Source of the DNA: Candidatus Eiseniibacteriota bacterium
GTDB taxonomy: Bacteria; Eisenbacteria; RBG-16-71-46
Assembly: GCA_041483195.1 (NCBI GenBank)
Contig: JBGPFC010000016.1
Location: 22,004 to 86,003 of the forward strand
Direction: 5' to 3'
DNA: 64,000 nucleotides
Positions 1-17,998 of this stretch are shown here, in pieces. The translations under genes were made by a program, and so were the position numbers. The notes beneath the pieces were generated by a model, which ran no database searches, was not told where the DNA came from, and saw only the letters and a list, made by a program, of their open reading frames with translations. Position 1 is the stretch's first letter. Every line of letters starts with the position of its first letter.

Positions 1-868
1 GCTCGCGCGCCTTGGCCGCGAAAGCGGCGCCCTGCGCGAGATGATCGCGATGCGTTCCGCTCAGGTCGCGCAGCGCCTCGAGCGCGCCGCGCTCCGCGCC
101 GCCCGCGTAGGCCGCCGCGAGCCCCGCGCCGCTCCAGAGGTCGGCGTGGCGGGCGGCATCGAGCCCGGCGATCGCGGCCGCGATCCGTCCGGGCTCTCCC
201 CCCTCGCCGAACCAGAGGCTGCGTCCGAGCCCCTGATCGTACGCGCGCCGCGCGTAGCCCAAGATGTCGCGCGGAACGAGCCCGCGCTTCACGCGCCGCA
301 CGCGCGCGAAATATCCGTCGTGGAATCCGCGCCCGTCGAGGACCAGCCAGCGCAGCAGCGGGTCGAACCCGGCGATTCGCCTCGCGAGCGCATGCGGGAG
401 CCGCGCGGTCGCCCAGCCCGCGCCGACGTGCAGCATGTACGCGTGCGGTGCCCCGTCGCCGCGCGCGAAGCGAGCCCATCGACCGCGATCGAACGGCGAG
501 ATCGCGTCGAGCAGCGCGAGCGCCATGCCCGCCCCTTCGAACGCGAAGCCGCGGATCTCGAGGGGTTCGTCGTCGAGCCGCGCGCCGAGCGCCGGGGCAC
601 CGCCCCGCTCGAGCGCCGCGTGGTACCCCCGGACGAACGCGAGGCCGATCGATTCGAGCCGCTCGCGCATCGCGGCCGCCGGCACATCGAACCCGCGCCG
701 CGCGACCGATGTCTCGCCGGACGGGATTCCGAAGAGCGCGATGCGCACCCGAGCCGCTGGCGAGAGGGCGCGCGGCCGCCCGACCGCCTGGACGATCGGG
801 GCGGCAGGCACCATGGCGATCGGGAGAGGGCCTGAGTCCCGGGGGGTCTTTCGGCCTGCGGCGCGCAT
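1..868 (-). CDS. DUF1702 family protein, enediyne biosynthesis E3/UnbL-like (3' end runs off the window)
   Basis: Hand translation of the minus frame (codons 868->2, no stop): ...RERLESIGLAFVRGYHAAL...RGFAFEGAGMALALLD...YMLHVGAGWATAR...DPLLRWLVLDGRGFHDGYF...YDQGLGRSLWF...DLWSGAGLAAAYAGG...LAQGAAFAAKARE. ATG at 868 has AGGAG upstream; alternative ATG at 814. Not in the ORF track because no stop falls inside the window. Confidence 0.85.
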   Translation of the reverse strand, partial: MRAAGRKTPRDSGPLPIAMVPAAPIVQAVGRPRALSPAARVRIALFGIPSGETSVARRGFDVPAAAMRERLESIGLAFVRGYHAALERGGAPALGARLDDEPLEIRGFAFEGAGMALALLDAISPFDRGRWARFARGDGAPHAYMLHVGAGWATARLPHALARRIAGFDPLLRWLVLDGRGFHDGYFARVRRVKRGLVPRDILGYARRAYDQGLGRSLWFGEGGEPGRIAAAIAGLDAARHADLWSGAGLAAAYAGGAERGALEALRDLSGTHRDHLAQGAAFAAKARE

Positions 869-986
869 GCGGAGCTCCTGAGAGACCGCGCCGGGTGCGA
901 TGGAGCGCCGCGGCACGGGCGGACCATGATGGTCGCGCCCCGGTCCGAGCGCTGTCAATGCCGAATCCGGCGCGCGGGGAGAGGCG

Positions 987-2333
987 CTAGTACATGTGCC
1001 GCAGCTCGACGCCCGTGTAGTAGTGCTCGAGGATCTCGGCCGCGTTCTTTCCCGTGCGCGCCATGCCGAGCGCCCCGGTCTGGCAGAGGCCGACGCCGTG
1101 ACCCGACCCCGCCCCGCTCGCCACGATCGCGAGCGTGCGCCCCGTCGCCGGATCGCGCCGCACGTCCACCTTGAACAGGTTCGAGCGGAGGATCGCCCCC
1201 GCGTTGCCGGCGCGACGCAACACCTGCCGCAGCACGTAGGCGGGGACGATGATCGTGCCGGTGCTGGTCGTCACCTCGAGGCGCCAGACGCGTCCCGATC
1301 TCGAGCGCGACGCGACGCGCACGTCGAACAGCGTTCCCACGCCCGTGGGGGGCAGCTCGACGCCGTACTGCGGCGCGAAGTGCGCGAGATTGGAGCCGAA
1401 CTCGGCGGCGGTCCATTCTTCGCGCCAGCGATACTGGGGCGATGCCGCGCAATAATCCTCTGAGCCGTCGCGATCGCGACGGCTCACGAGGTAGCGCAGT
1501 CCGTCGGTGGGCCAGGCCTCCCACGCCTCGGCGGTGATGCCGCCGCAGGTCGAGCAGTAGTTCGCGCGAATCGGCCAGCCGTCCGCGAGCGGAACGTCCC
1601 CCCGCGTGCTCTCGACGCAACGCGTCGCGAGCGGGCGCTCGGTCTCGACCGGACCGTAGACCTGGTCCTCGACCGTTCCGTAGAGATCGAAGCCCTCCTC
1701 GCCGCGGCGCCCGCGATAGAAGAGGGTGTAGCCGCGCGCCGCGATCGCCTGCGCGCGGCCCGCCTCGATGAGGGCGTCGGAGAGCGCGCCGATCTCCCCG
1801 GGCACGACGCCGAGCAGGTAGGTCTCGAGCGGCAAACGGTCCACCACGGTCAGCCTGCCGCGCGGATTCACGAATATCTTGATGCTGCCGCGCCACGTCT
1901 TGCCGCGCCACGCCACGACCGCCTCCGGTGAGAGTCTGCGGTCGCGCACCCAGAGCGTGTCGCCGGCGCGCAGCGCGGAGCCGAGGTTCCCGCGTCCCCT
2001 CGGCCCGAGGTTGTCGAAGGTGGCTTCGCCGTTCTTCGCCGTGACGCGGATCGTGCCCAGCGAGCGCTGGGCGGATCCATCGGGCGTGACGAGCATCGCG
2101 TCCGATCCCACGGTCGTGAGCTCGACGTCGTCGAGATCCCACGCCAGCCCCACGTCCATCGCGGGCTCGGCGGCCAGCTCGAAGGCCGCGGGCGCGGGGG
2201 GTGGCAGCGGCGCGGGCGCGCCGGGCCGTGCCACGGGTGGCGCCGGTGGCGAGACCGGTCGCGGCAGGGGCGCACAGGAGGCGGCGAGCGCGACCAGCGC
2301 GGCGGCGGCGAGTCGTGTGCCCGGGCCGCGCAC
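987..2333 (-). CDS. SpoIID/LytB domain lipoprotein (lytic transglycosylase-like)
   Basis: Lipobox-like ALAASC; motifs LETYLLGVVPGEI, AQAIAARGY, DQVYG, CGGIT, GHGVGLCQTGA, EILEHYYTG. Confidence 0.9.
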   Translation of the reverse strand: MRGPGTRLAAAALVALAASCAPLPRPVSPPAPPVARPGAPAPLPPPAPAAFELAAEPAMDVGLAWDLDDVELTTVGSDAMLVTPDGSAQRSLGTIRVTAKNGEATFDNLGPRGRGNLGSALRAGDTLWVRDRRLSPEAVVAWRGKTWRGSIKIFVNPRGRLTVVDRLPLETYLLGVVPGEIGALSDALIEAGRAQAIAARGYTLFYRGRRGEEGFDLYGTVEDQVYGPVETERPLATRCVESTRGDVPLADGWPIRANYCSTCGGITAEAWEAWPTDGLRYLVSRRDRDGSEDYCAASPQYRWREEWTAAEFGSNLAHFAPQYGVELPPTGVGTLFDVRVASRSRSGRVWRLEVTTSTGTIIVPAYVLRQVLRRAGNAGAILRSNLFKVDVRRDPATGRTLAIVASGAGSGHGVGLCQTGALGMARTGKNAAEILEHYYTGVELRHMY

Positions 2334-3545
2334 TCAGATCCCGGGGGTGATCTGCCCGAGCACGACAGGCCGCGATGCTCCGGTCGCGCGCGGCACGTTG
2401 CCCGGATGCCCGCAGAGCGTGAGGTGCGCGAGAAACGCGAACGCCAGCGCCTCCTTCGAATCGGCGCTCACGCCCAGCGTATCGAGCGGCGCGATGCGCG
2501 CGGGGCGCAGCCGCCGCGCGAGCGCACGCATCAGCGTCGCGTTCTTCACACCGCCCCCGCTCGCGTAGATCCCATCGACGCCAGAGTGCGGCTCGAGAAA
2601 CTGCTCGACGCCCGACGCGACCGCCGCGGCGGTGAGCTCGACCGCTGTCGCGAGCAGATCGTCGTCGGCGAGACTCATGGCCGCGCCCAGCCTGCGCAGC
2701 ATCACGGCGTAGTGTTCGCCGAACAGCTCCCGGCCGGTCGATCGCGGAGGCGGCGCCGCGAAAAACGGGTCGGACAACAACTCCGAGAGCAGCGCCTCGT
2801 TCGCGGTCCCGCGCGCGGCCGCCGCCCCGCCCGCGTCGTGCCGCTCGGTCCCGCCCGAGCGCAGGCCGACGAGCGCATCGAGCACCACGTTGCCCGGCCC
2901 GGTGTCGAACGCGACCACGTCGCCGATCCCGCCACCGCGAGGAAGAAACGTGAGGTTCGCCATGCCCCCGAGATTGAGGAGCACCCGCGATTCGAGATCG
3001 GACCGGAACAGCCACCAGTCGGCGAGCGGCACCAGCGGAGCGCCCTCGCCCCCCGCCGCGGTATCGCGCGCGCGGAAGTTGGAGACCACGGCGATGCCGG
3101 TGCGCTCTGCGAGCACGGCGGCCGAGCCGATCTGGAGCGTGAGCGCCTGGCCGTGCCCCGCGCGCCGCGGCACGTGACGCACCGTCTGGCCGTGCGAGCC
3201 GATCGCGTCCACCTCTCGCGGATCCACGTGCGCTGACGCGAGCAGCTCGAACACCGCCGCCGCGTATCGCTCGCCGAGCGCGGAGTCGAGGCGCATGAGT
3301 CGCTCGAGATCGACCGCCGGCGCGGAGGCCACCTCGAGCACCTCGCGGCGCAGCGCGCCCTCGAGCGGGGTCTCCGCGTATGCCTCGAGCGCGTGGCTCG
3401 CGCCGAGCCCCGCCCCGCGGAATCGCACGAGCGCCGCGTCCACGGCGTCGGCCGACGTCCCGGTCATGAGCCCCACGATCAGGTGCTCTTCGCGCGAGCC
3501 ATACTCCCGGAACCCGGCCAGCGCGTCGTGCGGCTGTCGTTTCAT
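2334..3545 (-). CDS. anmK: Anhydro-N-acetylmuramic acid kinase
   Basis: GLMTGTSAD, GSHGQTVRH, GGEGAPLVP, NLGGMAN, FDTGPGN, KEALAFA; start re-picked at ATG 3545. Confidence 0.93.
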   Translation of the reverse strand: MKRQPHDALAGFREYGSREEHLIVGLMTGTSADAVDAALVRFRGAGLGASHALEAYAETPLEGALRREVLEVASAPAVDLERLMRLDSALGERYAAAVFELLASAHVDPREVDAIGSHGQTVRHVPRRAGHGQALTLQIGSAAVLAERTGIAVVSNFRARDTAAGGEGAPLVPLADWWLFRSDLESRVLLNLGGMANLTFLPRGGGIGDVVAFDTGPGNVVLDALVGLRSGGTERHDAGGAAAARGTANEALLSELLSDPFFAAPPPRSTGRELFGEHYAVMLRRLGAAMSLADDDLLATAVELTAAAVASGVEQFLEPHSGVDGIYASGGGVKNATLMRALARRLRPARIAPLDTLGVSADSKEALAFAFLAHLTLCGHPGNVPRATGASRPVVLGQITPGI

Positions 3546-3570
3546 CGCCCGGACCCCGTTCGCGGCCCCG

Positions 3571-4491
3571 TCATGGCGCGTCGCCGAGCGCACCGCGAAC
3601 GAAGCCGCCCGCGCGCGCGAGCCGCTCCTCGGCCTCCGCGCGCGCGCATCCGCGCTTCAGCATCACGATCGCGGTCTTCACGCTCTTTCCCGCCGCCTCG
3701 ATGGCCGATTCGGCGCGCTCGTAGTCCACGCCGGTCACCGTCATCACGGTGCGCCGCGAGCGCTCGACCAGCTTCTGACTGGTCGCCTTCAGATCCACCA
3801 TCATGTTCTCGTAGGCCTTCCCCATTCGCACGAAGGCGGCGGTCGTGATCATGTTGAGCACCAGCTTCTGCGCGGTGCCCGCCTTCATTCGCGTCGAGCC
3901 CATCAGCACCTCGGGCCCCACCTCCACGCAGATCGACGCGTCCACCTCGAGCGTGAACTCGCTGCGCGGGGTGCACGTGACGTACCCGGTGCGCGCGCCG
4001 AGCCTGCGCGCGACGCGAAGCGCCGCGACCACGAACGGCGTGCGCCGGCTCGCGGCGAGCCCGATCACCGTGTCGCGCGGTCCCACCTCGAGGTCGATCA
4101 AGGCGGCTTCGCCTTCATCCTCGCGATCCTCTGCGCCCTCCACGGCGCGAATCAGCGCGCCGGGGCCTCCGGCCATGACGCCCCGCACCATGCCCGGCTC
4201 CGAGCCGAAGGTGGGAGGACACTCCGAGGCGTCGAGCACGCCGAGCCGCCCGCTGGTCCCGGCACCGACGTAGATCAGGCGGCCGCCCTCGCGGAAGGAG
4301 GCGACCACCAGCTCGACGGCCCCGGCGATCGCCGGCAGCTCGCGCGCCACGGCGTCCGGCACGGCGCGGTCCTCTGCGGAAATGCGCTCGAGCAGGGCCG
4401 GGACGTCGAGCGTGTCCAGGTCCATGGTGCGCGGATTGCGCTGCTCGGTGGCGAGGCGGGCGAACTCATCGAAGCGTGCGCGGTCGTCCAT
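3571..4491 (-). CDS. murQ: N-acetylmuramic acid 6-phosphate etherase
   Basis: TEQRNP, GAGTSGRLGVLDASECPPTFG, GPEVLMGSTRMKAGTAQKLVLNM; start ATG 4491. Confidence 0.95.
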   Translation of the reverse strand: MDDRARFDEFARLATEQRNPRTMDLDTLDVPALLERISAEDRAVPDAVARELPAIAGAVELVVASFREGGRLIYVGAGTSGRLGVLDASECPPTFGSEPGMVRGVMAGGPGALIRAVEGAEDREDEGEAALIDLEVGPRDTVIGLAASRRTPFVVAALRVARRLGARTGYVTCTPRSEFTLEVDASICVEVGPEVLMGSTRMKAGTAQKLVLNMITTAAFVRMGKAYENMMVDLKATSQKLVERSRRTVMTVTGVDYERAESAIEAAGKSVKTAIVMLKRGCARAEAEERLARAGGFVRGALGDAP

Positions 4492-4585
4492 GACCCGCCC
4501 AAGATGCCACGCCGCGCGCGGCGGGCGCAACGAGGGAGACGCGCGCGATCTTGACGCCCCCGCGATCGCGCCATAGCGTGCGGTG

Positions 4586-5440
4586 GTGCCCGAACTGCCG
4601 GAGGTCGAGACCGTGCGCCGAATGCTCGAGGCGCACGTGGTGGGACGCAGGGTGCGCGCCGTGCGGCTCTCGGGCAAGCGCCTGCGCGACCCCGTGCCGC
4701 GCGCGACGCCGCGGATGCTCGCGGGCCGCACGATCGTGGCGGTCGGCCGCCGCGGCAAGTACCTGCTGGTCTCGCTGGAGGACGGCGTGACGCTGCTCTC
4801 CCACCTCGGGATGAGCGGACGCTGGCTGTTCTATCTCGAGCCACCCGCTGCGCGGCTCCCGCACGTCCACGCGTGCATCGCATTCACCGATGGCAGCGCG
4901 CTCTGGTATCAGGACCCGCGCCGCTTCGGCTTGCTGCGCGCGGTGCGCACCGAAGCCGTCGACTTGGACCCCGCGATCGCGGTGCTCGGACCCGACCCGA
5001 TCGCGACGCCGCCCACCGGCCCCGCGCTCGCTGCACTCGCACGGGGCCTCACGCTCAGCGTGAAGGGCTTCCTGCTCGACCAGAGGCGCATCGCGGGCGT
5101 CGGGAACATCTACGCGAGCGAGATCCTCCATCGCGCGGGCGTGGATCCGCGCCGGCGCGCCTCGAGTCTCACGGGCGCGGAGTGGGCGCGCGTCGCGTCC
5201 GAGCTGGCCGCTGTGCTCGACGAGGCCATCCGCCGCTTCGGCACCACGTTCAGCATGTACCGAACGCTATGGAACGAGCCGGGCACGTACGGCGAGAAGC
5301 TGCGTGTGTACGATCGCGCGGCCGAGCCGTGCCGCCGCTGCGGCACGCCGATCCGCCGCATCGTCCAGGGCCAGCGCTCGACCTTCTTCTGTCCTCGCTG
5401 CCAGTCGCGCCGTGCCGCGCGCCCTGGCGCGCGCGCCTAG
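4586..5440 (+). CDS. mutM: Formamidopyrimidine-DNA glycosylase (Fpg/MutM)
   Basis: N-terminal PELPEVE, RRGKYL, HLGMSG, DPRRFG, GVGNIYASE, C-terminal CxxC...CxxC zinc finger. Confidence 0.95.
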   Translation: MPELPEVETVRRMLEAHVVGRRVRAVRLSGKRLRDPVPRATPRMLAGRTIVAVGRRGKYLLVSLEDGVTLLSHLGMSGRWLFYLEPPAARLPHVHACIAFTDGSALWYQDPRRFGLLRAVRTEAVDLDPAIAVLGPDPIATPPTGPALAALARGLTLSVKGFLLDQRRIAGVGNIYASEILHRAGVDPRRRASSLTGAEWARVASELAAVLDEAIRRFGTTFSMYRTLWNEPGTYGEKLRVYDRAAEPCRRCGTPIRRIVQGQRSTFFCPRCQSRRAARPGARA

Positions 5441-6621: not shown

Positions 6622-7577
<956 letters not shown>

Positions 7578-8003
7578 GGAGCCTCCGGGGCACGAGTTGG
7601 GGTCCGAATGCGGGTCCAGACTACCCTCGGGAGTCGCCCCGCCCATGCGGGTCCCGACGGACGGTCGATGGAATGGGACCAACGGTCACGGCGGGAGACG
7701 GGCGGCCCCGCGCGGCGTTCCATCGAGTCCTCCCCCCGGCGCGCCCCGAACGGGCTCGCTCGGCGACCATGGGGCCGGGTTCGGCCGCGATTTCCGCGGC
7801 ATCCGTGTGGAATCAGGCGATTTGCACGCCGCGCCGGGGTCCGGGGTGAGCCCCGCCCGTCCACTTTTTTTTGGAAAGTTCTTTCCCCGGCGGCCGTCCC
7901 CCCCTAACCTGTCGGCGGGTTTCGGCATCCGACACCCGTGACCAACGCGCTGGAACCCGATCCGTCACCTCAGACGAACCCATTCACCTCTCACGGAGGT
8001 CTC

Positions 8004-9488
8004 GTGACGTTCGCATCATTTGGGCTGCCTACTCCCATCTTGAAAGGCATTCGCGCCGCGGGCTTTACCGAGCCCACCGCGATCCAGGGCCGGGCGATCC
8101 CCGTCATCCTGCAGGGCAACGATCTCATCGGCGCCGCGCAAAACGGGAGCGGCAAGACCGGCGCCTACATCATCCCCATCCTGGCGCGCCTGATCGAGAG
8201 CACCGGACGGCTCAGCTCGCTCATCGTGGTACCCACGCGTGAGCTGGCGAGCTACGTCGAGACCCGGGCTCGGGACTACGCGCGCTACACGAACATCAAG
8301 ATCGGTGTCGTGTTCACCGGCGCGCCGATCGCCGCGCAGGAGCGCATGCTCCGCGAGCAGCCGTTGGACGTGCTGGTCTCGACCCCGGGCCGCCTGCTCG
8401 AGCTGCACGCCCGCGGCTGCCTCAACTTCGAGGATGTCGAGATCATGGTGCTCGAGGAGGCCGACCGCATGGTCGCGCTCGGCCTCGCGCCCGATCTGCG
8501 CAAGCTCCTGAAGCTCCTGCCCGAGACGCGGCAGACGCTCATGTTCGCGATCACCATGCCGCCCGAGCTGAACCGGCTCGCGAAGGAGGCGCTGATCGAG
8601 CCGGTGCGCGTGGACATGGCGCCGCCCGCACGACCGAGTTCCGGCATCACGCAGGCGATCTACCCGGTGCCCAAGGAGCTGAAGCCCGATCTGCTCGACG
8701 AGATGCTCTCGCGCGCGGAGGTGCGCAACACCATCATGTTCTGCCGCTCGCGAGCTTCCGCCGAGCGCGTCGCGAAGCAGCTCCAGCGCCGCGGCTACAG
8801 CGTCGCGATCCTGGACGAGCACCCGAGCCAGGGCGAGCGCGAGCAGGCGCTCGAGGACCTGCTGCGCGGTCGCGTGCAGATCCTGGTCGCGAGCGACGCA
8901 TCGGCGCGCAGCCTCGACGTGACCGGGGTTTCGCACGTCATCAACTTCGAGGTGCCTCAGACGCCCGAGGACTACGTGCATCGCCTCGGTCGCGCGGGGA
9001 AGGCCGATCCGGTCGGAGACGTGTTCACGCTCATGAGCCCCGACGAGCGCAAGGACGTCGCGGCCATCGAGCGGCTCGTCGGGCGCGCGATTCCGCTCGT
9101 CATGCTCCCCGACTTCGACTACGGCCGGCCCCCGGCGCTGCTCAAGCAGGTGGTGAGTTACGGCGAGGACAGCCTGGCTCCGGCCGCGGCGAGGCCGCCG
9201 GCGGGGGTCGCGGGCGCCGCGGCACGCATCGCCGTGGTGCCGCGAGCCGGCGTCACGATCGTCAAGCCCGGTGGCGCCCAGGCGAAGGTCTCTGTGAACG
9301 GCGGCGCGAAGAGCGGTGGCGCGCGCGCGAAGACCGCGAAGGGCGCGCAGCCCGGCCGTGGAAAGAGCGCGGCACGCCCCAAGTCGCGGCCCGAGCGCTC
9401 GCACCATGCGACGCACGCGCGCGCGAGCGGACACGCGAAGTCCTCCCGCTCACGCCCCGCGCAGCGGGCGTCGGGGAAGCGCCGCTAG
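8004..9488 (+). CDS. DEAD-box RNA helicase homolog with degenerate ATPase motifs and a basic C-terminal tail
   Basis: Q motif GFTEPTAIQ, AQNGSGKT, PTRELA, TPGRL, EEAD, AIT, ARSLD, HRLGRAGK; GGAGG RBS before GTG 8004. Confidence 0.85.
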   Translation: MTFASFGLPTPILKGIRAAGFTEPTAIQGRAIPVILQGNDLIGAAQNGSGKTGAYIIPILARLIESTGRLSSLIVVPTRELASYVETRARDYARYTNIKIGVVFTGAPIAAQERMLREQPLDVLVSTPGRLLELHARGCLNFEDVEIMVLEEADRMVALGLAPDLRKLLKLLPETRQTLMFAITMPPELNRLAKEALIEPVRVDMAPPARPSSGITQAIYPVPKELKPDLLDEMLSRAEVRNTIMFCRSRASAERVAKQLQRRGYSVAILDEHPSQGEREQALEDLLRGRVQILVASDASARSLDVTGVSHVINFEVPQTPEDYVHRLGRAGKADPVGDVFTLMSPDERKDVAAIERLVGRAIPLVMLPDFDYGRPPALLKQVVSYGEDSLAPAAARPPAGVAGAAARIAVVPRAGVTIVKPGGAQAKVSVNGGAKSGGARAKTAKGAQPGRGKSAARPKSRPERSHHATHARASGHAKSSRSRPAQRASGKRR

Positions 9489-10678
9489 CGGGACGGCTCG
9501 ATCGCGGCGGGGATCTTCGCCGCCGCCCACCGCCAGGCGTCTTCCGCGCCGCCCGCGTCGGCGGCCGCGATCTGCAGGAGTTCCGGGCTGCCGCCGCCCT
9601 TCCCCTTCGCGAGCGTGAGCAGCTCCGGCAGCCACGCCTTGAGATCGAGGCTCCCGCCTTTCGCGCGTGCCACGATCACTGTCGGCTCGGGAGCGCTCGC
9701 GGCCGCCGCCACCCATGGCGCTCCCGCCTCGAGGCACTTGAGCACGAACGCGCGCAGCTCGTCTCGCGGCCGGGCGGGCGACAGCTCGGAGACGCCGTGC
9801 GGCGGGTGCCCCACGCGCTCCCTGGCCTCGGCCGCGATCGCCTTCGCGGTCAGCTCGCGCAATCGCTTCGCCAGCTCGTCGCGCTCTTCGGCCGCGCGCT
9901 CGAGATGGGCGATCAGCTCGCGGTCCTTCAGCGTGCGGCGCTTCGCCGCCTCGAGCAGCGCCTCGGTCCGCCACGCGTGATCGCGCAGGGCGCGGCCGCC
10001 GCACAGAAACTCGAACCGGAGATTCCCGCGCACCTTCTCCCAGCGCACGATCTTGATCGCGCCCACCTCGCCCGTGCGCCGGGTGTGCGTGCCGCCGCAG
10101 GCCGACACGTCCCACTCCGGGATCTCGACGATGCGAATTCGCCCGCTCACGGCGAGCGGCTTGCGGAGGACGAAGCGCTTCACGCCCTCGTCGTCCACCC
10201 AGTGCCGCTCGATCGGGCGGTCCTCCCACACCACGCCGTTCGCCGCAGCCTCGATGCGCTCGACCCGCCTCCAGTCCGCGTCAGCCAGCGCCAGCTCGAC
10301 GGAGCTACGCTCCTCGCCGAGGTGCGAAGACAACGTCGGCGCGTTCAGCACGCGCTCGAACGCCGCGGAGAGGATGTGCTGTCCGGTGTGCTGCTGCATG
10401 TGGTCGAAGCGCCGCGGCCAGTCGATCGCGGCCTCGATCTCGCCCCGAAGATCCACGCCGTCGATCACGTGCCACACGCGTCCGCCCTCGTCCTGCACGT
10501 CCACCACCGTGGCCCCGCCGAGCGTGCCGCGGTCGGCTCCCTGCCCGCCGCTCTCTGGGTAGAAATACGTGGCGTCGAGCTCGACGGCCGCGCGGCCACG
10601 ATGTTCCCCCGCCGCCGCGACCCGCGCGGTGAATCGCGTGGTGTATGCGTCGTCGTAGTCGAGCCGGGTCGAGGCCAT
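9485..10678 (-). CDS. Alanyl-tRNA editing protein (AlaX-like, with DHHA1 domain)
   Basis: FYPESGGQ..D.G, HMQQHTGQHILS, CGGTH, C-terminal KGGGS. Confidence 0.88.
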   Translation of the reverse strand: MASTRLDYDDAYTTRFTARVAAAGEHRGRAAVELDATYFYPESGGQGADRGTLGGATVVDVQDEGGRVWHVIDGVDLRGEIEAAIDWPRRFDHMQQHTGQHILSAAFERVLNAPTLSSHLGEERSSVELALADADWRRVERIEAAANGVVWEDRPIERHWVDDEGVKRFVLRKPLAVSGRIRIVEIPEWDVSACGGTHTRRTGEVGAIKIVRWEKVRGNLRFEFLCGGRALRDHAWRTEALLEAAKRRTLKDRELIAHLERAAEERDELAKRLRELTAKAIAAEARERVGHPPHGVSELSPARPRDELRAFVLKCLEAGAPWVAAAASAPEPTVIVARAKGGSLDLKAWLPELLTLAKGKGGGSPELLQIAAADAGGAEDAWRWAAAKIPAAIEPSR

Positions 10679-10682
10679 CGGA

Positions 10683-11720
<1,038 letters not shown>

Positions 11721-11731
11721 GAGCTGGCGCC

Positions 11732-12619
11732 TCAGACCGATGACGGGGCGCCCGGCTCCGGCTCGGGCGACCTCGCGGGCTCCACCAGCGTGAGCCGCGC
11801 GCCGTGGCCGGCTCCGGCCACGCGCGCATCGAGATCCGCGCCGGCGTAGGCGGGTCCGACCTCGACCAGCTCGGCGTCGGCCTCGACCAGCCGGAGGTAG
11901 AAGAACGTCCACGCGTATTGAATGACCGGCGTGAACGCCGTGACGAGCAGCCAGCAGATCGCGACCCAGGTGGTCACCCCCGCTCCCGGCACGAGCAGAG
12001 AGAGCACGGTGACGGCGAACACCGCGGCGAGGGCAAGAAACACCGACACCACGATCATCTCGAACCAGCGCTCGAAGCGTCCCGACGAAAGCCGGAACGA
12101 ACGCTGGAACGCGCCGGACAGGTGCGGCTCGTCGAGCACGACCGCCTCGGTCGCGAACGCCAGGCGGTAGCCCAGCACGATCGCCGGGACCACGAAGAAG
12201 AAGGTCGCGAACAGCAGCGCGAGATTGCGCACGATCTCGGTCACGATGAGCCAGGGCAGGCGCCTCAAGCCCCGCGCGTAGCACTCGAGCGCTGGCGCGG
12301 GATGCGCGGCGGGGGGCGTATTGAACACCGACCGCGCGCGGAACCGGAGCATGGCTCCCACCACCATCAGCATCAGGTAGTCGCCGAGCAGCGCCACGCT
12401 GCTGAGCAGCATGACGCGGCCGGGTTGCTCGGTCTGATCGAGTGGCGGCAGCAGCGCGAGCGCCACGATCCATGGCGCGCGCAGCAGCAGCGGCACGACC
12501 AGCGAATGCAGCGCGTCACGGCGCACCGCCAGATCGAAGGCGAGCGCGAAGGCGTGCCGCGTGGAGGCCGGGAGACGCGGATCATGGGGCGTGGGCATGG
12601 AGTGGGCCGCGCGGTCCAT
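11732..12619 (-). CDS. Hypothetical multi-pass membrane protein
   Basis: About 6 hydrophobic segments, 'AF.RSFRL' pattern and 'FFYLRL' end; start 12619 or 12598. Confidence 0.65.
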   Translation of the reverse strand: MDRAAHSMPTPHDPRLPASTRHAFALAFDLAVRRDALHSLVVPLLLRAPWIVALALLPPLDQTEQPGRVMLLSSVALLGDYLMLMVVGAMLRFRARSVFNTPPAAHPAPALECYARGLRRLPWLIVTEIVRNLALLFATFFFVVPAIVLGYRLAFATEAVVLDEPHLSGAFQRSFRLSSGRFERWFEMIVVSVFLALAAVFAVTVLSLLVPGAGVTTWVAICWLLVTAFTPVIQYAWTFFYLRLVEADAELVEVGPAYAGADLDARVAGAGHGARLTLVEPARSPEPEPGAPSSV

Positions 12620-12629
12620 GCGCGGCCGA

Positions 12630-12661
12630 TTGACACTAGAGAGAGCCCTCACTAGTGTCAA
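12630..12661. promoter_or_regulatory. Symmetric bidirectional sigma70-type promoter / inverted repeat TTGACACTAG-N12-CTAGTGTCAA
   Basis: Each strand reads TTGACA-17 nt-TAGTGT; lies between divergent starts at 12619 (-) and 12667 (+). Confidence 0.7.
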
Positions 12662-12666
12662 GCTGC

Positions 12667-13149
12667 ATGCCTCGCAAGCTCTCACACGTCGACAGCAGAG
12701 GCCGGATCCGCATGGTGGACGTGAGCGACAAGCCCGTCACCGCCCGCGTCGCGGTCGCCCATGGCCGTATCTACATGCATCACGATACGCTCGCGCTGGT
12801 GCGCGAGGAACGCGCCCCGAAGGGCAACGTGCTGACCACCGCGCAGATCGCGGGCGTGATGGCCGCGAAGCGCACCGGCAGTCTGATCCCCCTCGCCCAC
12901 ACCCTTCCGCTCGACAGCGTCGATCTCGCCTTCTCGTTCGACGAGGACTCCTCGTCGATCGGGATCGAGGCGCGCGTCAAGTCGCGCGGGCGGACCGGCG
13001 TCGAGATCGAAGCACTCACGGCCGCGATGACGGCGGCGCTGACGCTCTACGACATGCTGAAGGCGGTGGATCGAGGCATGGTCATGGGCGAGTTCGCGCT
13101 GCTGGAGAAGCGCGGAGGCCGGAGTGGGGCCTACCGCCGCGGCTCCTGA
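12667..13149 (+). CDS. moaC: Cyclic pyranopterin monophosphate synthase
   Basis: LSHVD..G.IRMVDVSDK, KGNVL, AGVMAAKRT, LIPLAH, TGVEIEALT, YDMLKAVD, KRGGRSG. Confidence 0.95.
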   Translation: MPRKLSHVDSRGRIRMVDVSDKPVTARVAVAHGRIYMHHDTLALVREERAPKGNVLTTAQIAGVMAAKRTGSLIPLAHTLPLDSVDLAFSFDEDSSSIGIEARVKSRGRTGVEIEALTAAMTAALTLYDMLKAVDRGMVMGEFALLEKRGGRSGAYRRGS

Positions 13150-14389
13150 GCCGCTGAGCTACGCCGAGGCGCGGGCCAGGGTGCTTGCGGCCGCGCGGCC
13201 GCTGGCGTCCGAGATGGTCGCGCTCGCGGACTGTCGCGGGCGCGCGCTGCGGCGGCGCGTGACGGCCGCGCACGCCCTGCCCCCCTTCCGCAACAGCTCG
13301 ATGGACGGCGTCGCGGTGCGCTCGGACGATCTGGCTGCGGCGAGCGCGGCGAGCCCGGTGACGCTGCCGGTGGCCGAGACCATCGCGGCGGGGCACCTCG
13401 CGTCGCGCGCGCTTCGCCCCGGGGAGGTCATGCGCATCATGACCGGCGCGATGCTCCCCGAGTCCGCCGACGCGATCGTTCCCGTCGAAGACTTCGAGGT
13501 CGAAGCATCGGCCGGCTCGGAGCGCGCTCGCTTCACCCGCCCGGCGTCCGCAGCTCAGTACGTGCGCGAGGCGGGCGCGGATCTCGCGGCGGGCGCACTC
13601 GCGCTCGAGGAGGGCCGCGAGCTTTCGGCACACGATCTCGCGTTGCTCGCGGCGCTCGGCGAGGCCACGCTCGCGGTGGGGCCGCGTCCGCGCGTTGCGG
13701 TGCTCTCGACCGGCGACGAGCTGCTCGACGTCGGCCAGCCGCTGCGCGAGGGGGCGATCCGCGACAGCAACCGCGTCATGCTGGCGTCGCTGCTCGAGGA
13801 GTGCGGCGCCCGCGTCGTGGCCGCGCGCCGCGTGCCGGATGATCCCGCCCGCGTGGCCACCGACGTCGCGAAGCTGCTCGAGATCGCAGACGTCGTGCTC
13901 ACCATCGGTGGCGTATCGGCCGGCGATTTCGATCCGGTCAAGCTCGCGCTCGCGGCCGTTGGCGACGTCGCCCTGTGGCGCGTCGCGATGAAACCCGGCC
14001 GGCCCCAGGCGTTCGGCACCCCGCGGGGCCGGCTCTTCTTCGGAATGCCGGGCAATCCGGCCTCGGTCGCGTGCACGTTCGAGGCGCTGGTGCGCCCCGC
14101 GCTTCGCAGGCTCGCGGGCTGCGCATCGCTCGACCGCCCGCGGCTCACGGTGCGCGCGGCGGAGCCCATCGGTTCCCGCGAGGGTCGCACCGACTTCGTG
14201 CGCGTGACGCTGGCCGAGCGCGATGGGACGTGGTGGGCGAGCGTCGCCGGCGATCAGGTGTCCGGTCACCTCACGCCCCAATCGCGCGCGCACGCGCTCC
14301 TGATCGTGCCAGAGGCCGACGCTTCGCTCGAAACCGGCGCGGGCGCCGAGGCGATGATCCTCCGCTGGCCGGAGCGCGAAGGCTCGTGA
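13124..14389 (+). CDS. moeA: Molybdopterin molybdotransferase
   Basis: PPFRNSSMDG, IMTGAMLP, STGDEL, GGVSAGDFD, MKPGRP, MPGNPAS; start uncertain. Confidence 0.92.
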   Translation: MGPTAAAPEPLSYAEARARVLAAARPLASEMVALADCRGRALRRRVTAAHALPPFRNSSMDGVAVRSDDLAAASAASPVTLPVAETIAAGHLASRALRPGEVMRIMTGAMLPESADAIVPVEDFEVEASAGSERARFTRPASAAQYVREAGADLAAGALALEEGRELSAHDLALLAALGEATLAVGPRPRVAVLSTGDELLDVGQPLREGAIRDSNRVMLASLLEECGARVVAARRVPDDPARVATDVAKLLEIADVVLTIGGVSAGDFDPVKLALAAVGDVALWRVAMKPGRPQAFGTPRGRLFFGMPGNPASVACTFEALVRPALRRLAGCASLDRPRLTVRAAEPIGSREGRTDFVRVTLAERDGTWWASVAGDQVSGHLTPQSRAHALLIVPEADASLETGAGAEAMILRWPEREGS

Positions 14390-16464
14390 GCCGGCGCCGT
14401 CCGCCGGCGCGCGGCGAAGCACGAACGCACCCGGCTCCGCCGGCCGTCGCGCCCGCTTACCAGGCGCCTCCCCTCTCGCCGAGCCATCCCGCGGCGATCG
14501 CGGCGTTGCTCGCGGCGATCGCGTGCGTCGTGCTGAGCGCGACGTTCGAGATCTACGACACCGATTTCTGGCAGCACCTGCTGGTGGGCAAGGCGATCTG
14601 GCAGGCCCATGGAGTTCCGCGGCTCCACGAGTGGACGTGGCCGGGTCTCGGCCGCCCCGACGTGCTGCCCTCCTGGGGATTCCGAGCGCTGATCTGGCCG
14701 TTCTGGGCCGCGGGCGGGGTCTGGGGGCTGTTCGCCTTCCGCTGGATCGCGTCGCTCGCCGCGCTCGGGGTGATGTGGCAGACCGCGCGTCGCATGGGAG
14801 CGCGCGGGCTCTCCCCGCTATTCGTCGTGGTGCTCGGCTCTGTGATCCTGCGCACCCGATCGCAGGTGCGGCCCGAGGCCCTCGCCGCGATCCTGCTGGC
14901 GCTCGAGATCGCGATCCTCGAGACGGCGCGCGCGGGCGGCGCGCTGCGCCGTGCTCCCGCTGCATCGCTGATCGCGATCGCGTGGGCGTGGATCAACGTG
15001 CACGTCTCGTTTCCGCTCTTCTTCGTCGTGCTCGGGATTCACGCGCTCGACGCCCGGCTCGCGGCCCGCGGCGGGAGCGGCTCCGGCGACGCCGCTCGCG
15101 CGCGGCGGCTCGCGTTCGTCGGCCTCGCGGCGCTCGCCGCTTCCTTCCTCAACCCGTTCGGCGCGCGCGCGGTCTGGCAGCCGTTCGAGTTCATCCTCCA
15201 CCAGCGCCAGGAACCCATCTTCCTCACCATCGGCGAGCTGCAACCGCCGCGCATCGACGAGAACCTCTGGAACGGCCTCCCGCTGCTGGCGCTGGGCTGG
15301 CCGCTGCTGCTGGCGTGGCGTGCGCGGCGCACCGGGTGGGATCGCGTCGAGCTCATGACGCTGCTCGCGTTCGGGGCGATGGGCGCGAGCAGTGCGCGCT
15401 TTCTCGGCAACGCGGCGCTGGTCGCGGTGCCCTACGCGGCTCGCGATCTCGACGCGTGGATTCGCGCGAGAGGCTGGCCGCGCTGGACCGCCTCGCCATG
15501 GGCGCGCGCCGCGATCGCGATCGCCGCCTCGGTCCTGGTGGGATGGTTCGAATGGACGGCCCCCGATCCGCGCCCCGGCGTGGGGATCGAGATGAGCCAG
15601 TACCCGGTGCGTGCGTGCGATTTCATGCGCGATCACGACGTGCGTGGGCGCGGCTTCAACCACTTCTCGCAGGGCGGCTACCTGTTGTGGCGGTTCTGGC
15701 CGGACCCGGCGCGCCTGCCGTTCATGGACATTCACCAGTCGGGAACGCGCGAGGACCGGCTGCTCTACATGCTGGCCGGTGCACGCTTCGAGCGCTGGCG
15801 CGCGCTCGATGCCCGCGAACGTTTCGCATGGGTGTTGCTCAATCGCCGGCAGGTGGTGGGCGATCACCTGTTGGATTTCCTCGACCGCGACAGCACGTTC
15901 GCGCTCGTCTTCCTCGACGACGCTGCTGCGCTCTACGCGCGGCGCGGCGGCGTGCTCGATCCGCTCACGCAGCGCGGCTACCGGCTGATCCCGGGCGGGC
16001 GCGCCGCGCTCGCCGCGCTGGGGGAGCGCTGCGCGGAGGATCCCGTGCTCCGCGAGCGGGCGCGCATCGAGCTCGAACGCCAGGTGGACGGCTCCCCGTG
16101 GAACGCGGCGGCGCACAGCCTGCTCGCGAACATCGCGCTCATGGAACATCGCGCCACGGCGGCACGCTTCCACCTGGAGCGGGCGCTCGAGGCGGACCCA
16201 CTCATTCCGCGCACCCACGAGCGGCTCGGCGACCTCGCACTCGAGGGCGGCGATCCGCGCGCGGCGATCCGCGAGTACCGTCTCGAGCTGGTCACGAACG
16301 AGCCCCCGCCCCAGATCGAGCTGCGCATGGGACGCGCCTCGGAGGCCCTGGGCGATCCCGGGGCGGCTCGCGCGCACTACCGCGCGGAGCTGAAGCGCGA
16401 CCCATCGAGTCGGGAAGCGCTCGATCGGCTCTCGGCGCTCGAAGCGCGCATCGCGAGACCGTGA
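14386..16464 (+). CDS. Polytopic membrane protein (GT-C-like, D-x-W-x-H-L-x-x-G motif) with C-terminal TPR-like repeats
   Basis: DFWQHLLVGKAIW, RPE, WINVH, LNPFG, GGYLLW; TPR-like helices at the C-terminus; GTG overlaps the moeA stop. Confidence 0.65.
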   Translation: MSRRRPPARGEARTHPAPPAVAPAYQAPPLSPSHPAAIAALLAAIACVVLSATFEIYDTDFWQHLLVGKAIWQAHGVPRLHEWTWPGLGRPDVLPSWGFRALIWPFWAAGGVWGLFAFRWIASLAALGVMWQTARRMGARGLSPLFVVVLGSVILRTRSQVRPEALAAILLALEIAILETARAGGALRRAPAASLIAIAWAWINVHVSFPLFFVVLGIHALDARLAARGGSGSGDAARARRLAFVGLAALAASFLNPFGARAVWQPFEFILHQRQEPIFLTIGELQPPRIDENLWNGLPLLALGWPLLLAWRARRTGWDRVELMTLLAFGAMGASSARFLGNAALVAVPYAARDLDAWIRARGWPRWTASPWARAAIAIAASVLVGWFEWTAPDPRPGVGIEMSQYPVRACDFMRDHDVRGRGFNHFSQGGYLLWRFWPDPARLPFMDIHQSGTREDRLLYMLAGARFERWRALDARERFAWVLLNRRQVVGDHLLDFLDRDSTFALVFLDDAAALYARRGGVLDPLTQRGYRLIPGGRAALAALGERCAEDPVLRERARIELERQVDGSPWNAAAHSLLANIALMEHRATAARFHLERALEADPLIPRTHERLGDLALEGGDPRAAIREYRLELVTNEPPPQIELRMGRASEALGDPGAARAHYRAELKRDPSSREALDRLSALEARIARP

Positions 16465-16534
16465 GCCGCAGGTCCCCGCGCCGCGGATCCGTCGACCGCG
16501 ACCGGGGGACGGCCCGCGAGGGTGTGGCTCTCGG

Positions 16535-17998
16535 CTAGAGCAGCCCGCGCACGCTGCGCTGCGCCGCGACCAGCAGCGCCTGCGCCTGCACGCCCCACCA
16601 GAGCGTGAGCACGATGCTCGCGAACAGCGCGACCATGGCCGGCGCCGCCCACGAGACCTCCGTGGGTTCCCCGCTCGGCTCGTCCATGTACATCGCGACG
16701 GTGATGCGCAGGTAGTAGAAGATGGACACCACGCTGTTCAGCACGCCAACGATCACCAGCGACACCAGGTGCTGGTCGAGCGCCGCGCCGAAGATGTAGA
16801 CCTTGCCCATGAACCCGGCGGTGGGCGGAATTCCGCCCAGCGAGAGCATGAACACCGTCATCGCGAGGCCGAGCACCGGGTGGCGGAAGCCCAGCCCCGA
16901 GAGGTCGGAGATCAGCACGCGCTCGTCTTGTCCGCGACCGAGCAGCGCGAGAACGCCGAACGCCCCGAGGCTCGTCACGGCGTAGATCACGAGGTAGAAG
17001 ACGGCGGCCGAAGTTCCCTGCGGCCCGCCCGCCGCGAGCGCGACCAGCACGTAGCCCGCGTGCGCGATGCTCGAGTAGGCGAGCATGCGCTTCACGTTGG
17101 TCTGGAGCAGCGCCGTGACGTTGCCGAGCGTCATCGTCAGGATCGCGATCCACGACAGGATCGGGCGCCAGTCGCCCTGCACCTCGGCGAGCGCGCTCAT
17201 GCTCACCCGCAGGATCGCGGCGAAGCCCGCCGCCTTGGCCCCCGCCGACATGAAGCCCGTGACCGAGGTGGGCGCCCCTTCGTAGGCGTCCGGCGCCCAC
17301 ATGTGGAAAGGCACGGCGGCGACCTTGAACCCGAAGCCCACCAGCAGCAGCAACCCGCCGGTCACGAACAGCGGATTCTGGAGCATCGGGGAGTCGGCCA
17401 TGAAGGCCGCGATCGCGCGCAGATTCGTCGAGCCGGTCGCGCCGTACACCAGCGCGATGCCGTAGAGCAGGAAGCCGCTCGCGAAGGCGCCCAGCAGGAA
17501 GTACTTGAGCGCGGCCTCGTTCGATTCGAGCTGGCCCCGCCGGAAGCCCACCAGGACGTAGAGCGAGATCGACATCAGCTCGAGCCCGAGGAACACCGTG
17601 ATGAGATCGTTCGATGCGGCCATCACGATCATGCCGAGCGTGGCGCTCAGCAGCAGCGCGTAGTACTCCGTCGCGCGCAGGCCGAGCCGCTTCACGTAGT
17701 TCCAGGACACCAGCACGCTGACCGCCGCGATCGAGCAGAACAGCAGCGTGAAGAACACGCTGAATCCGTCGTGCACGAACATGCCGCCGAACAGCGAGCG
17801 CCTGGCGTCCCGCACGAAGAACACGGACGCAGCGGCTGCGATCAGCGTGAGCAGCGCGAGCGCCGGCGCGCGGCCGCTCTCCGCCCGGACCGGCACGAAC
17901 TCGAGCATCAGCAGCAGCATCACCCCGGCGCTCAGCGCGATCACGGCGCCCAGCGCCCACCAGTCCACGGCGAGCAGCGCGGCAGGCAGCGGCATCAT
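16535..17998 (-). CDS. nuoN: NADH-quinone oxidoreductase subunit N
   Basis: GLELMSI, EAALKYFLLG, FKVAAVPFHMWAPDAYEGAP, KRMLAYSSIAH, GIPPTAGFMGK. Confidence 0.95.
   Translation of the reverse strand: MMPLPAALLAVDWWALGAVIALSAGVMLLLMLEFVPVRAESGRAPALALLTLIAAAASVFFVRDARRSLFGGMFVHDGFSVFFTLLFCSIAAVSVLVSWNYVKRLGLRATEYYALLLSATLGMIVMAASNDLITVFLGLELMSISLYVLVGFRRGQLESNEAALKYFLLGAFASGFLLYGIALVYGATGSTNLRAIAAFMADSPMLQNPLFVTGGLLLLVGFGFKVAAVPFHMWAPDAYEGAPTSVTGFMSAGAKAAGFAAILRVSMSALAEVQGDWRPILSWIAILTMTLGNVTALLQTNVKRMLAYSSIAHAGYVLVALAAGGPQGTSAAVFYLVIYAVTSLGAFGVLALLGRGQDERVLISDLSGLGFRHPVLGLAMTVFMLSLGGIPPTAGFMGKVYIFGAALDQHLVSLVIVGVLNSVVSIFYYLRITVAMYMDEPSGEPTEVSWAAPAMVALFASIVLTLWWGVQAQALLVAAQRSVRGLL

Follow-up and report, generated by a model that had tools for sequence, protein, structure and literature searches.

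The locus considered here raises the question of whether a truncated gene at the left edge of a 64,000-nt stretch of DNA from a Candidatus Eisenbacteria genome marks the start of an enediyne-type polyketide cluster, and how much of such a cluster the genome holds. The stretch (the window) is G000:C16:22004-86003, i.e. positions 22004-86003 of contig C16 in the assembly studied, G000. A first-pass annotation had placed an E3/UnbL-type (DUF1702) gene at this edge and had predicted the rest of the cassette just outside the window. We find that E3 is the first of three genes, E3-PksE-E10, encoding a DUF1702 protein, an iterative enediyne-type polyketide synthase (PKSE) and a hot-dog thioesterase (TE). 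The genome's E4- and E5-like proteins (E4' and E5') are distant and lie on another contig, C26, with a tetratricopeptide repeat (TPR) membrane protein, X343, between them. The explanation that we favour, and regard as probable, is a split five-plus-one variant cassette, in which a genuine E3-PksE-E10 operon has the C26 triad as the envelope-side half of the same pathway.

The window-edge gene and the spacer in front of it are located as follows.

Window 1..868, minus strand: 5' part (codons 1-289 of 350) of the E3/UnbL-type DUF1702 gene (PF08012; reading of the open reading frame, ORF)
G000:C16:21819-22871, minus strand: complete E3 gene, 350 aa (PF08012, 349.3 bits)
Window 869..986, minus strand: spacer of 118 nt between the SpoIID-like gene and E3 (sequence and ORF table)

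All sequence details given in the first-pass annotation were recovered: the ATG at 868-866 opens a minus-strand frame that is uninterrupted to position 2 (289 codons), an AGGAG ribosome-binding site lies at 879-875, six bases ahead of the ATG, and the translation has all six motifs (GFAFEGAGM, YMLHVGAGWA, DPLLRWLVLDGRGFHDGYF, DQGLGRSLWF, DLWSGAGLAAAYAGG and LAQGAAFAAKAR). Another 185 nt of the gene extend left beyond the window, to G000:C16:21819. The DUF1702/E3 identity was borne out by a hidden Markov model search against PF08012 (cut-off 25 bits), in which the part inside the window scores 278.6 bits (E 6.7e-83) and the whole gene reaches E 2e-104 over profile positions 4-318 of 319; as judged from the sequence, the score of the window part alone rules out a frame open by chance. 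This is the sole DUF1702 gene in the assembly (4.17 Mb, 93 contigs), and its nearest Atlas clusters are labelled DUF1702 or 'enediyne biosynthesis protein' (score 0.97-0.98). The whole ORF has a G+C content at third codon positions (GC3) of 0.86, in a genome of 70% GC. Because the frame runs off the left window end, it enters the ORF list only if open-ended ORFs are allowed, and this open end could explain why the ORF track omitted it.

The predicted E3 structure is an all-helical repeat of ~19 helices (pLDDT 85, pTM 0.84). Since residues 1-31 of the model are low-confidence or disordered and the Pfam match begins at residue 40, translation may start further in, for example at Met19. Across 20 diverse family members 78 columns are invariant, among them several His, Asp and Glu residues. 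The E3 sequence has no match in PDB at E<=1, a Foldseek search of solved structures with the model returned nothing at E<=0.001, and no NCBIfam models for E3, E4 or E5 were found. The model suggests a soluble all-helical protein with no known catalytic fold, for which roles as an enzyme and as a scaffold of the synthase are both possible. Similarity to MIF4G/MA3-type helical repeats (best VIA-align, Z 6.4 over 100 residues) was in the range expected for helical proteins, and we drew no functional inference from it. The available excerpt of PMC9992847 describes the DUF1702 family as being of unknown function. In one contig from run X5 (depth 6.5 of 22.6), a single base of E3 is missing at L002:19168 (window ~164), which may reflect either an assembly error or a strain whose E3 is frameshifted.

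The two genes that follow E3 lie to the left of the window.

C16:16021-21819, minus strand, outside the window: PksE, 1932 aa (Pfam KS, AT, KR and DH)
C16:15599-16024, minus strand, outside the window: E10 thioesterase, 141 aa (PF13279, PDB matches)

On the minus strand E3 comes first, then PksE, then E10. The E3 stop and the start of the polyketide synthase (PKS) gene overlap within TGATG, and at the PKS/E10 junction the overlap reads ATGA; because stop and start codons overlap at both junctions, the three genes are predicted to be translationally coupled. E3 had been proposed as the first gene of a leftward operon with an iterative PksE and a hot-dog thioesterase just outside the window, and this is what the contig holds. 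In PksE, the ketosynthase (KS, residues 2-410), acyltransferase (AT, 618-831), ketoreductase (KR, 1209-1388) and dehydratase (DH, 1466-1737) exceed their Pfam cut-offs, and residues 481-899 match the DynE8 acyltransferase structure (E 5e-57). The acyl carrier protein (ACP) region gives a weak PP-binding match in Pfam (~residues 947-1011, 15.6 bits) and a match of E 4e-16 to the solved CalE8 ACP, the only ACP chain among the best 60 of 146 PDB matches to the C-terminal half of PksE. The motifs DGACASS, HGTGT, GHSLGE, HAFH, HxxxGxxxxP and GGxGxxA, which we take to be catalytic, are intact. E10 is a hot-dog protein (PF13279, 51.5 bits) that matches CalE7 (E 2.6e-48), SgcE10 ('ACP-polyene thioesterase', 1.2e-44) and DynE7 (4e-41). 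The genus mate G097 (locus L005) has the same operon (E3 68%, PKS 72% and E10 74% identity), followed by the same AdoMet decarboxylase and agmatinase genes as in G000. GC3 is 0.86-0.88 in the operon, similar to that of neighbouring genes. In four further sediment metagenome runs, contig pieces identical to the reference cross the E3/PKS, PKS/E10 and E10/tRNA junctions, and no single one of them spans the whole operon; many contig 'joints' of 20-23 nt were set aside as repeats or other organisms. The runs listed for the operon include no RNA run.

Other parts of the prediction did not hold. The expected order E3-E4-E5-PksE is E3-PksE-E10 in fact, and no E4/UnbV, E5/UnbU or tailoring gene adjoins the operon. 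In place of a larger cluster beyond the edge, E10 is followed by tRNA-Asp, AdoMet decarboxylase, agmatinase, RNA methyltransferase, MazG and alanine racemase genes, and E3 is preceded, inside the window, by SpoIID, AnmK, MurQ and Fpg. With tRNA-Asp and housekeeping genes on its flanks, the operon therefore consists of three genes and is not the edge of a large cluster. Nor is E3 an orphan, with PksE adjacent and distant E4' and E5' elsewhere in the genome.

For E4, E5 and E10, the queries were the proteins of the complete Paludisphaera soli cassette (L021), in which E4 is an FG-GAP plus UnbV_ASPIC protein, E5 an RnfD-like membrane protein and E10 a 4HBT_2 protein. In G000 they retrieved E10 at the operon (63% identity) and distant matches to E4 (33%) and E5 (31%) side by side on C26.

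C26:13579-15570, minus strand: E4', 663 aa (FG-GAP/UnbV_ASPIC)
C26:12551-13582, minus strand: X343, 343 aa, no Pfam family (TPR-like in the model)
C26:11617-12537, minus strand: E5', 306 aa (RnfD/NqrB-like)

E4' carries FG-GAP_3 (147.7 bits) and UnbV_ASPIC (74 bits) domains and an N-terminal hydrophobic segment that resembles a signal peptide or membrane anchor; FG-GAP with a C-terminal UnbV_ASPIC is not a specific layout, being common to many unrelated CRTAC1-like proteins. E5' aligns with Paludisphaera E5 at 31% identity over 259 residues, and both give weak NQR2_RnfD_RnfE matches (24.3 and 30.9 bits). In the X343 model (pLDDT 90), a single membrane helix at the N terminus precedes TPR-like repeats. 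X343 belongs to a small family, with 84 representatives at E<=0.001 in a set of 1.84 billion proteins. In an E4 tree of 67 proteins, from which the E4' of genome G133 is missing because an in-frame TGA splits its match, five E4' rows form a clade of their own (SH-aLRT 96) on a long branch from 60 canonical E4 proteins, and E4' does not group with the E4 of canonical cassettes. Around the triad, C26 encodes surface proteins and multihaem cytochromes. Two multihaem cytochrome c genes overlap each other and are convergent with E5' (L085:1124-2633, G000:C26:10124-11633); cytochromes were dropped as candidates for a part of the system, since they are not conserved beside triads elsewhere.

Gene context makes it likely, in our estimate, that the triad belongs to the same pathway as E3-PksE-E10. 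The most direct case is G133, a genome of the same family and another genus (L086), in which E10, PksE and E3 stand back to back with E4', X343 and E5' ([E10<-PksE<-E3] and [E4'->X343->E5']), six genes contiguous; its triad proteins share 64-73% (E4'), 61% (X343) and 66% (E5') identity with those on C26. In G040, a member of another family, 5 kb separate E3-PksE-E10 from an ORF in which E4' and X are fused, and locus L024 has the order E3-PksE-E10-E4'. L058, from the Terriglobia, is a single locus with DUF1702, discrete ACP, KS, KS, FabA and KS genes and the triad. With X343 as seed (8 closest sequences), a metagenome scan gave 56 loci, in which the E4'-X-E5' order is kept wherever the contig reaches. 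DUF1702 and/or PKSE stand beside the triad in eight of these: E3 is divergent from the triad in four (L098, L099, L100 and L142), the order is collinear, E4'-X-E5'-DUF1702-PksE, in L136 (which also has E10) and L143, and the remaining two are L139 and L106. Among 206 genomes of the phylum, DUF1702 exceeds its cut-off in five and X343 is found in three, all of which have DUF1702 (3/3); among 250 further genomes of Acidobacteriota X343 is found in none, hence the co-occurrence test has no power there. Within the genus, G097, which has the operon, also has an E4' (83% identity) that ends 12 nt from a contig end, G074 has no E3, E10, E4' or X343, and G145 likewise lacks all four, its E5' being reduced to a 41-residue relic.

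Several of these loci show further details. The E4' of G133 (L086:12828-14761; G133:C85:74827-76775) has one in-frame TGA near residue 320, which may point to a pseudogene or to recoding, or may be a sequencing error. The G040 fusion of E4' with the TPR protein is one ORF of ~860 aa (L088:2482-5064 and 7289-9979). In L058 (positions 10001-20921, from a Terriglobia metagenome-assembled genome, MAG), DUF1702 comes before a DtxR-type regulator, a discrete ACP, three KS-like proteins, a FabA-like dehydratase and a triad that is 57%, 44% and 63% identical to the E4', X343 and E5' of C26; the locus resembles the cassette in a dissociated, type II-like form that has no PksE. The E5' remnant of G145 (L089:5692-6196; G145:C353) covers residues 244-284 at 76% identity. 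Its distance to a DNA-glycosylase-like gene, the same one as beside E4' on C26, is 250 nt, and the remnant looks like the deletion scar of a triad.

By analogy with characterised PKSE/TE pairs, the synthase would prime its own ACP and build an ACP-bound conjugated polyene from malonyl units, and E10 would release the polyene, for which a heptaene is the known shunt product. The accessible sections of PMC4480864 and PMC9682884 report that a PKSE-TE pair makes an ACP-bound polyene, with pentadecaheptaene as the shunt product. E3, presumably made in step with the synthase, could act on or with the enzyme-bound intermediate. E4' (an FG-GAP/UnbV beta-propeller), X343 (a membrane-anchored TPR protein) and E5' (an RnfD/NqrB-like polytopic protein) would most likely form the envelope-side half. 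As neither locus adjoins tailoring genes, resistance genes or genes specific to 9- or 10-membered rings, a simple polyene or polyyne-type lipid is a more likely product than a decorated, DNA-cleaving enediyne, and finding E3-PksE-E10 is no evidence that this bacterium makes an enediyne.

More tentatively, and with somewhat less than even confidence, we suggest a second, undescribed form of the cassette. It would have an invariant E3-PksE-E10 core and an E4'-TPR anchor-E5' module that adjoins it, is fused or stands separately, its hosts would be bacteria from soil and sediment that belong to several phyla (Eisenbacteria, Acidobacteriota and unclassified MAGs), and it would make an envelope polyene or polyyne lipid and not a DNA-cleaving antibiotic. 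In G040 an MMPL/RND-type transporter gene stands between the triad and E3, and in the Planctomycetota locus L008 (2091-4427) an MMPL gene stands between E3 and PksE. These genes hint at an exported lipid product, and MMPL-type lipid exporters beside two such loci fit the envelope-lipid interpretation.

A number of observations weigh against the split-cassette reading. Of the eight metagenome triad loci that reach 5 kb or more to each side, six lack DUF1702 and PKSE, and because of this the triad could have its own function. G151-G154 all have E3-PksE-E10 and give no E5-like match with either E5 query, so the trio evidently can stand without E5. UnbV_ASPIC and RnfD-like membrane proteins both form large families that include many unrelated members: the former have 25 matches in the single genome G151, and the latter have matches in 72 of 151 phylum genomes, the unpublished genome G014 included. 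Three genomes without DUF1702 (G084, G144 and G118) have E4/E5-like pairs or fusions. Between G000 and G133, identity is 49% for E3, 55% for the PKS and 61% for E10, as compared to 61-73% for the triads, and on the E3 tree G000 and G097 group with Bryobacterales and one Planctomycetota cassette (SH-aLRT 97) and not with G133. The tree points to a separate acquisition of the core operon, and because of this grouping and the identity gap, operon and triad may have different histories. Related genomes are moreover non-independent samples for the co-occurrence of the triad; the rows of the PKS tree are non-actinobacterial relatives only, no tree including actinobacterial PKSE, E3, E4 or E5; and the C-terminal ACPS match of PksE, which corresponds to the phosphopantetheinyl transferase (PPTase), is 22.6 bits, below the Pfam cut-off of 25, so that five of the six PKSE domains appear secure and the PPTase domain probable.

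In G084 and G144 the E5-like and E4-like parts share one frame (L091, G084:C1:2346982-2349696, 991 aa; L092, G144:C40:129506-132211, 1150 aa), and because the genomes with these fusions have no DUF1702, a third UnbU/UnbV-like subfamily exists apart from PKSE cassettes.

These points can be read another way, with E3-PksE-E10 as a self-sufficient module that makes a heptaene-type polyene or a close derivative, and the triad as an unrelated envelope system near some PKSE genes. The trio without detectable E5 in G151-G154, the triads that stand alone in most of the well-flanked metagenome loci, and the DUF1702-free pairs and fusions of G084, G144 and G118 would all follow from it, and in characterised systems a PKSE needs only its TE to yield heptaene (as reported in the available part of PMC4480864). 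Such independence is hard to square with the repeated physical linkage of the triad in four different arrangements, with the E4'-X fusion beside the operon in G040, with the confinement of X343 to DUF1702 genomes of the phylum (3/3 against a base rate of 5/206), and with the joint absence of both halves from G074 and G145. We consider a self-sufficient trio unlikely, and the split cassette remains the reading that we prefer.

It is far less probable that the organism is a true enediyne producer with a 9- or 10-membered warhead, its other pathway genes being scattered or unassembled. All five cassette functions do have at least a distant counterpart in the genome, and in an assembly of 93 contigs at 96.8% completeness some genes could be missing. 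Against this, both loci lie inside long contigs among housekeeping, cytochrome or surface-protein genes, and neither has beside it any of the further conserved biosynthetic, regulatory and self-resistance genes of 9- and 10-membered enediyne clusters (no adjoining oxidoreductase, epoxide hydrolase, sugar, aromatic-moiety, regulator or resistance genes). E4' falls outside the canonical E4 clade on the tree, and E5' was counted likewise. With the PKS query, no second type I PKS was found in the genome, only a locus on C8 resembling fatty acid synthase. According to the available text of PMC10308959, the enediynes reported so far come only from Actinobacteria and ascidian extracts.

The assembly is a sediment MAG with a contamination of 0.04%, and TyrS, encoded on the same contig as the operon, has four organism-named matches among 120 listed, all from Candidatus Eisenbacteria (73-77% identity). 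On these matches the host genome is assigned to Candidatus Eisenbacteria, in line with the non-actinobacterial candidate phylum foreseen by the first-pass annotation. An artefact, i.e. misbinned or misassembled foreign DNA or a shadow ORF, for which one could cite the metagenomic origin of the genome and the patchiness of the operon in the genus (two of four genomes), is very unlikely in view of the 86-kb contig that carries both the operon and the Eisenbacteria-type TyrS, the GC3 like that of neighbouring genes, the syntenic flanks in G097, the low contamination, the junctions bridged in four other runs and the Pfam score of E3 (349 bits).

Compared with the actinomycete cassette SgcE3-E4-E5-E-E10 of C-1027 (UnbL/UnbV/UnbU/PksE/TebC), the Eisenbacteria genes agree in having a DUF1702 protein as E3, a PksE with the size and domain order of PKSE, a DynE8-like AT and a CalE8-like ACP, and an E10 that is a close relative of CalE7, SgcE10 and DynE7. 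They differ in that the five genes are not contiguous (only E3, PksE and E10 adjoin), deep-branching E4' and E5' flank the TPR membrane protein on another contig, the surroundings hold no tailoring or resistance genes, and the host belongs to Candidatus Eisenbacteria and not to Actinomycetota. The cassette of Paludisphaera soli JC670 (L021: E3-E4-E5-PksE-E10) is alike in sequence (E3 57%, PKS 56%, E10 63% identity) and in its co-directional, tightly packed genes, but there E4 directly follows E3, whereas here PksE does. G133 has the same six gene families, contiguous there and split over C16 and C26 here; its triad is the more similar part, E3 and the PKS being only 49% and 55% identical, and its E4' has the in-frame TGA. 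The polyunsaturated fatty acid synthase PfaA also resembles the PKS, omega_3_PfaA being among the best NCBIfam matches (514 bits against a cut-off of 1010). Unlike PfaA and the type I synthases of secondary lipids, the synthase here has a single ACP and a C-terminal PPTase-like domain, and its partners are E3 and a CalE7-type TE, with no adjacent Pfa partner genes.

How unusual this is was assessed among E3 relatives, of which there are 4204 proteins at E<=0.001 among 8000 scored candidates; on one-genome-per-species contigs, 460 of 468 E3 pattern matches were confirmed. The figures for closest loci refer to the best 80 of the 460 E3 loci, the other 380 of which may include actinomycetes. All of the best 80 are non-actinobacterial (Acidobacteriota, Planctomycetota, Cyanobacteriota, Parabeggiatoa, Chloroflexota and others). 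E4 follows E3 in 62 of them, the order is E4-E5-E3-PksE in three, PksE follows E3 with no E4 or E5 between in seven (L005, L008, L020, L022, L024, L039 and L075), and eight have no PksE, E4 or E5 in the locus. The layout with no E4 or E5 between is not a clade on the E3 or PKS trees and needs at least six changes on the PKS tree (47 rows); a single origin was rejected, and the layout arose repeatedly. E3 without detectable PksE, E4, E5 or E10 in the locus was seen in L006, L007, L012 and L077 (Candidatus Parabeggiatoa) and in L067, L082 and L034, some of these E3-only loci having been examined up to 10 kb per side; the E3 proteins of the four Parabeggiatoa loci group closely together in one clade (SH-aLRT 100).

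The first-pass annotation had called the lineage unexpected. It is indeed non-actinobacterial, but 'unexpected' was an overstatement: such cassettes have been published and are common in the genomes searched. In the available portions of the sources, 160 of 210 enediyne KS domains from metagenomes are placed outside the actinobacterial lineage (PMC10308959), Methyloprofundus has homologues of sgcE3, E4, E5, E and E10 (PMC8788690), and seven of 61 cassettes lie outside Actinomycetales (PMC4480864). With these published cassettes and with E3 relatives in 460 species genomes, the 80 closest being non-actinobacterial, the lineage is only mildly surprising for an enediyne-like cassette. The literature searched does not mention Eisenbacteria and enediynes together. 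The split cassette with its E4'-TPR-E5' module looks like an undescribed variant, no literature search having been aimed at the module as such. An article by Rudolf (2016) may list non-actinobacterial cassettes, and one by Gui (2024) may assign roles to E3-E5.

The relevance of these findings is moderate and concerns enediyne and polyene biosynthesis and genome mining. E3, E4 and E5 are still termed conserved genes of unknown function in the portions of the enediyne literature consulted, and natural variants in which E3 stays with the synthase while E4 and E5 are swapped for a distant module or dropped can separate their contributions. The unit that persists is the trio E3-PksE-E10 and not the five-gene cassette, and genome mining that requires E4 or E5 beside PksE would miss such cassettes. 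A polyketide pathway is added to Candidatus Eisenbacteria.

The genes that bound the operon on either side are the following.

L002:12446-12522 (G000:C16:15445-15521): tRNA-Asp(GTC), directly after E10
Window 987-2333, minus strand: SpoIID-like gene (ORF table)

The interval between these two genes is variable. With the operon in G000 it measures 7.3 kb, as compared to 16 kb of unrelated genes in G074, which include an ABC ATPase, an ECF sigma factor, a type III glutamine synthetase, a DUF4331 protein and a 1623-aa PKD/beta-helix surface protein; in G097 the distance from SpoIID to E3 is ~2.4 kb longer than in G000. Within the genus the operon was found in G000 and G097 and not in G074 (93% complete) or G145 (80% complete). 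The operon thus occupies a variable interval beside a tRNA gene, and its patchy presence there fits gain or loss by horizontal transfer. The operon promoter is likely located in the spacer at window 869..986. A consensus scan of the spacer (L002:19873-19901) and the operon found no sigma-70-like site in the spacer, with promoter-like sites only at the E10 end and downstream of the tRNA, and the terminator scan of the operon gave none above shuffle expectation. Further into the window, the SpoIID-like gene stands in a row with genes for anhydro-MurNAc kinase (AnmK) and a MurQ-like SIS-domain protein (window 987-4758, minus strand), a cell-wall recycling block on the same strand as E3.

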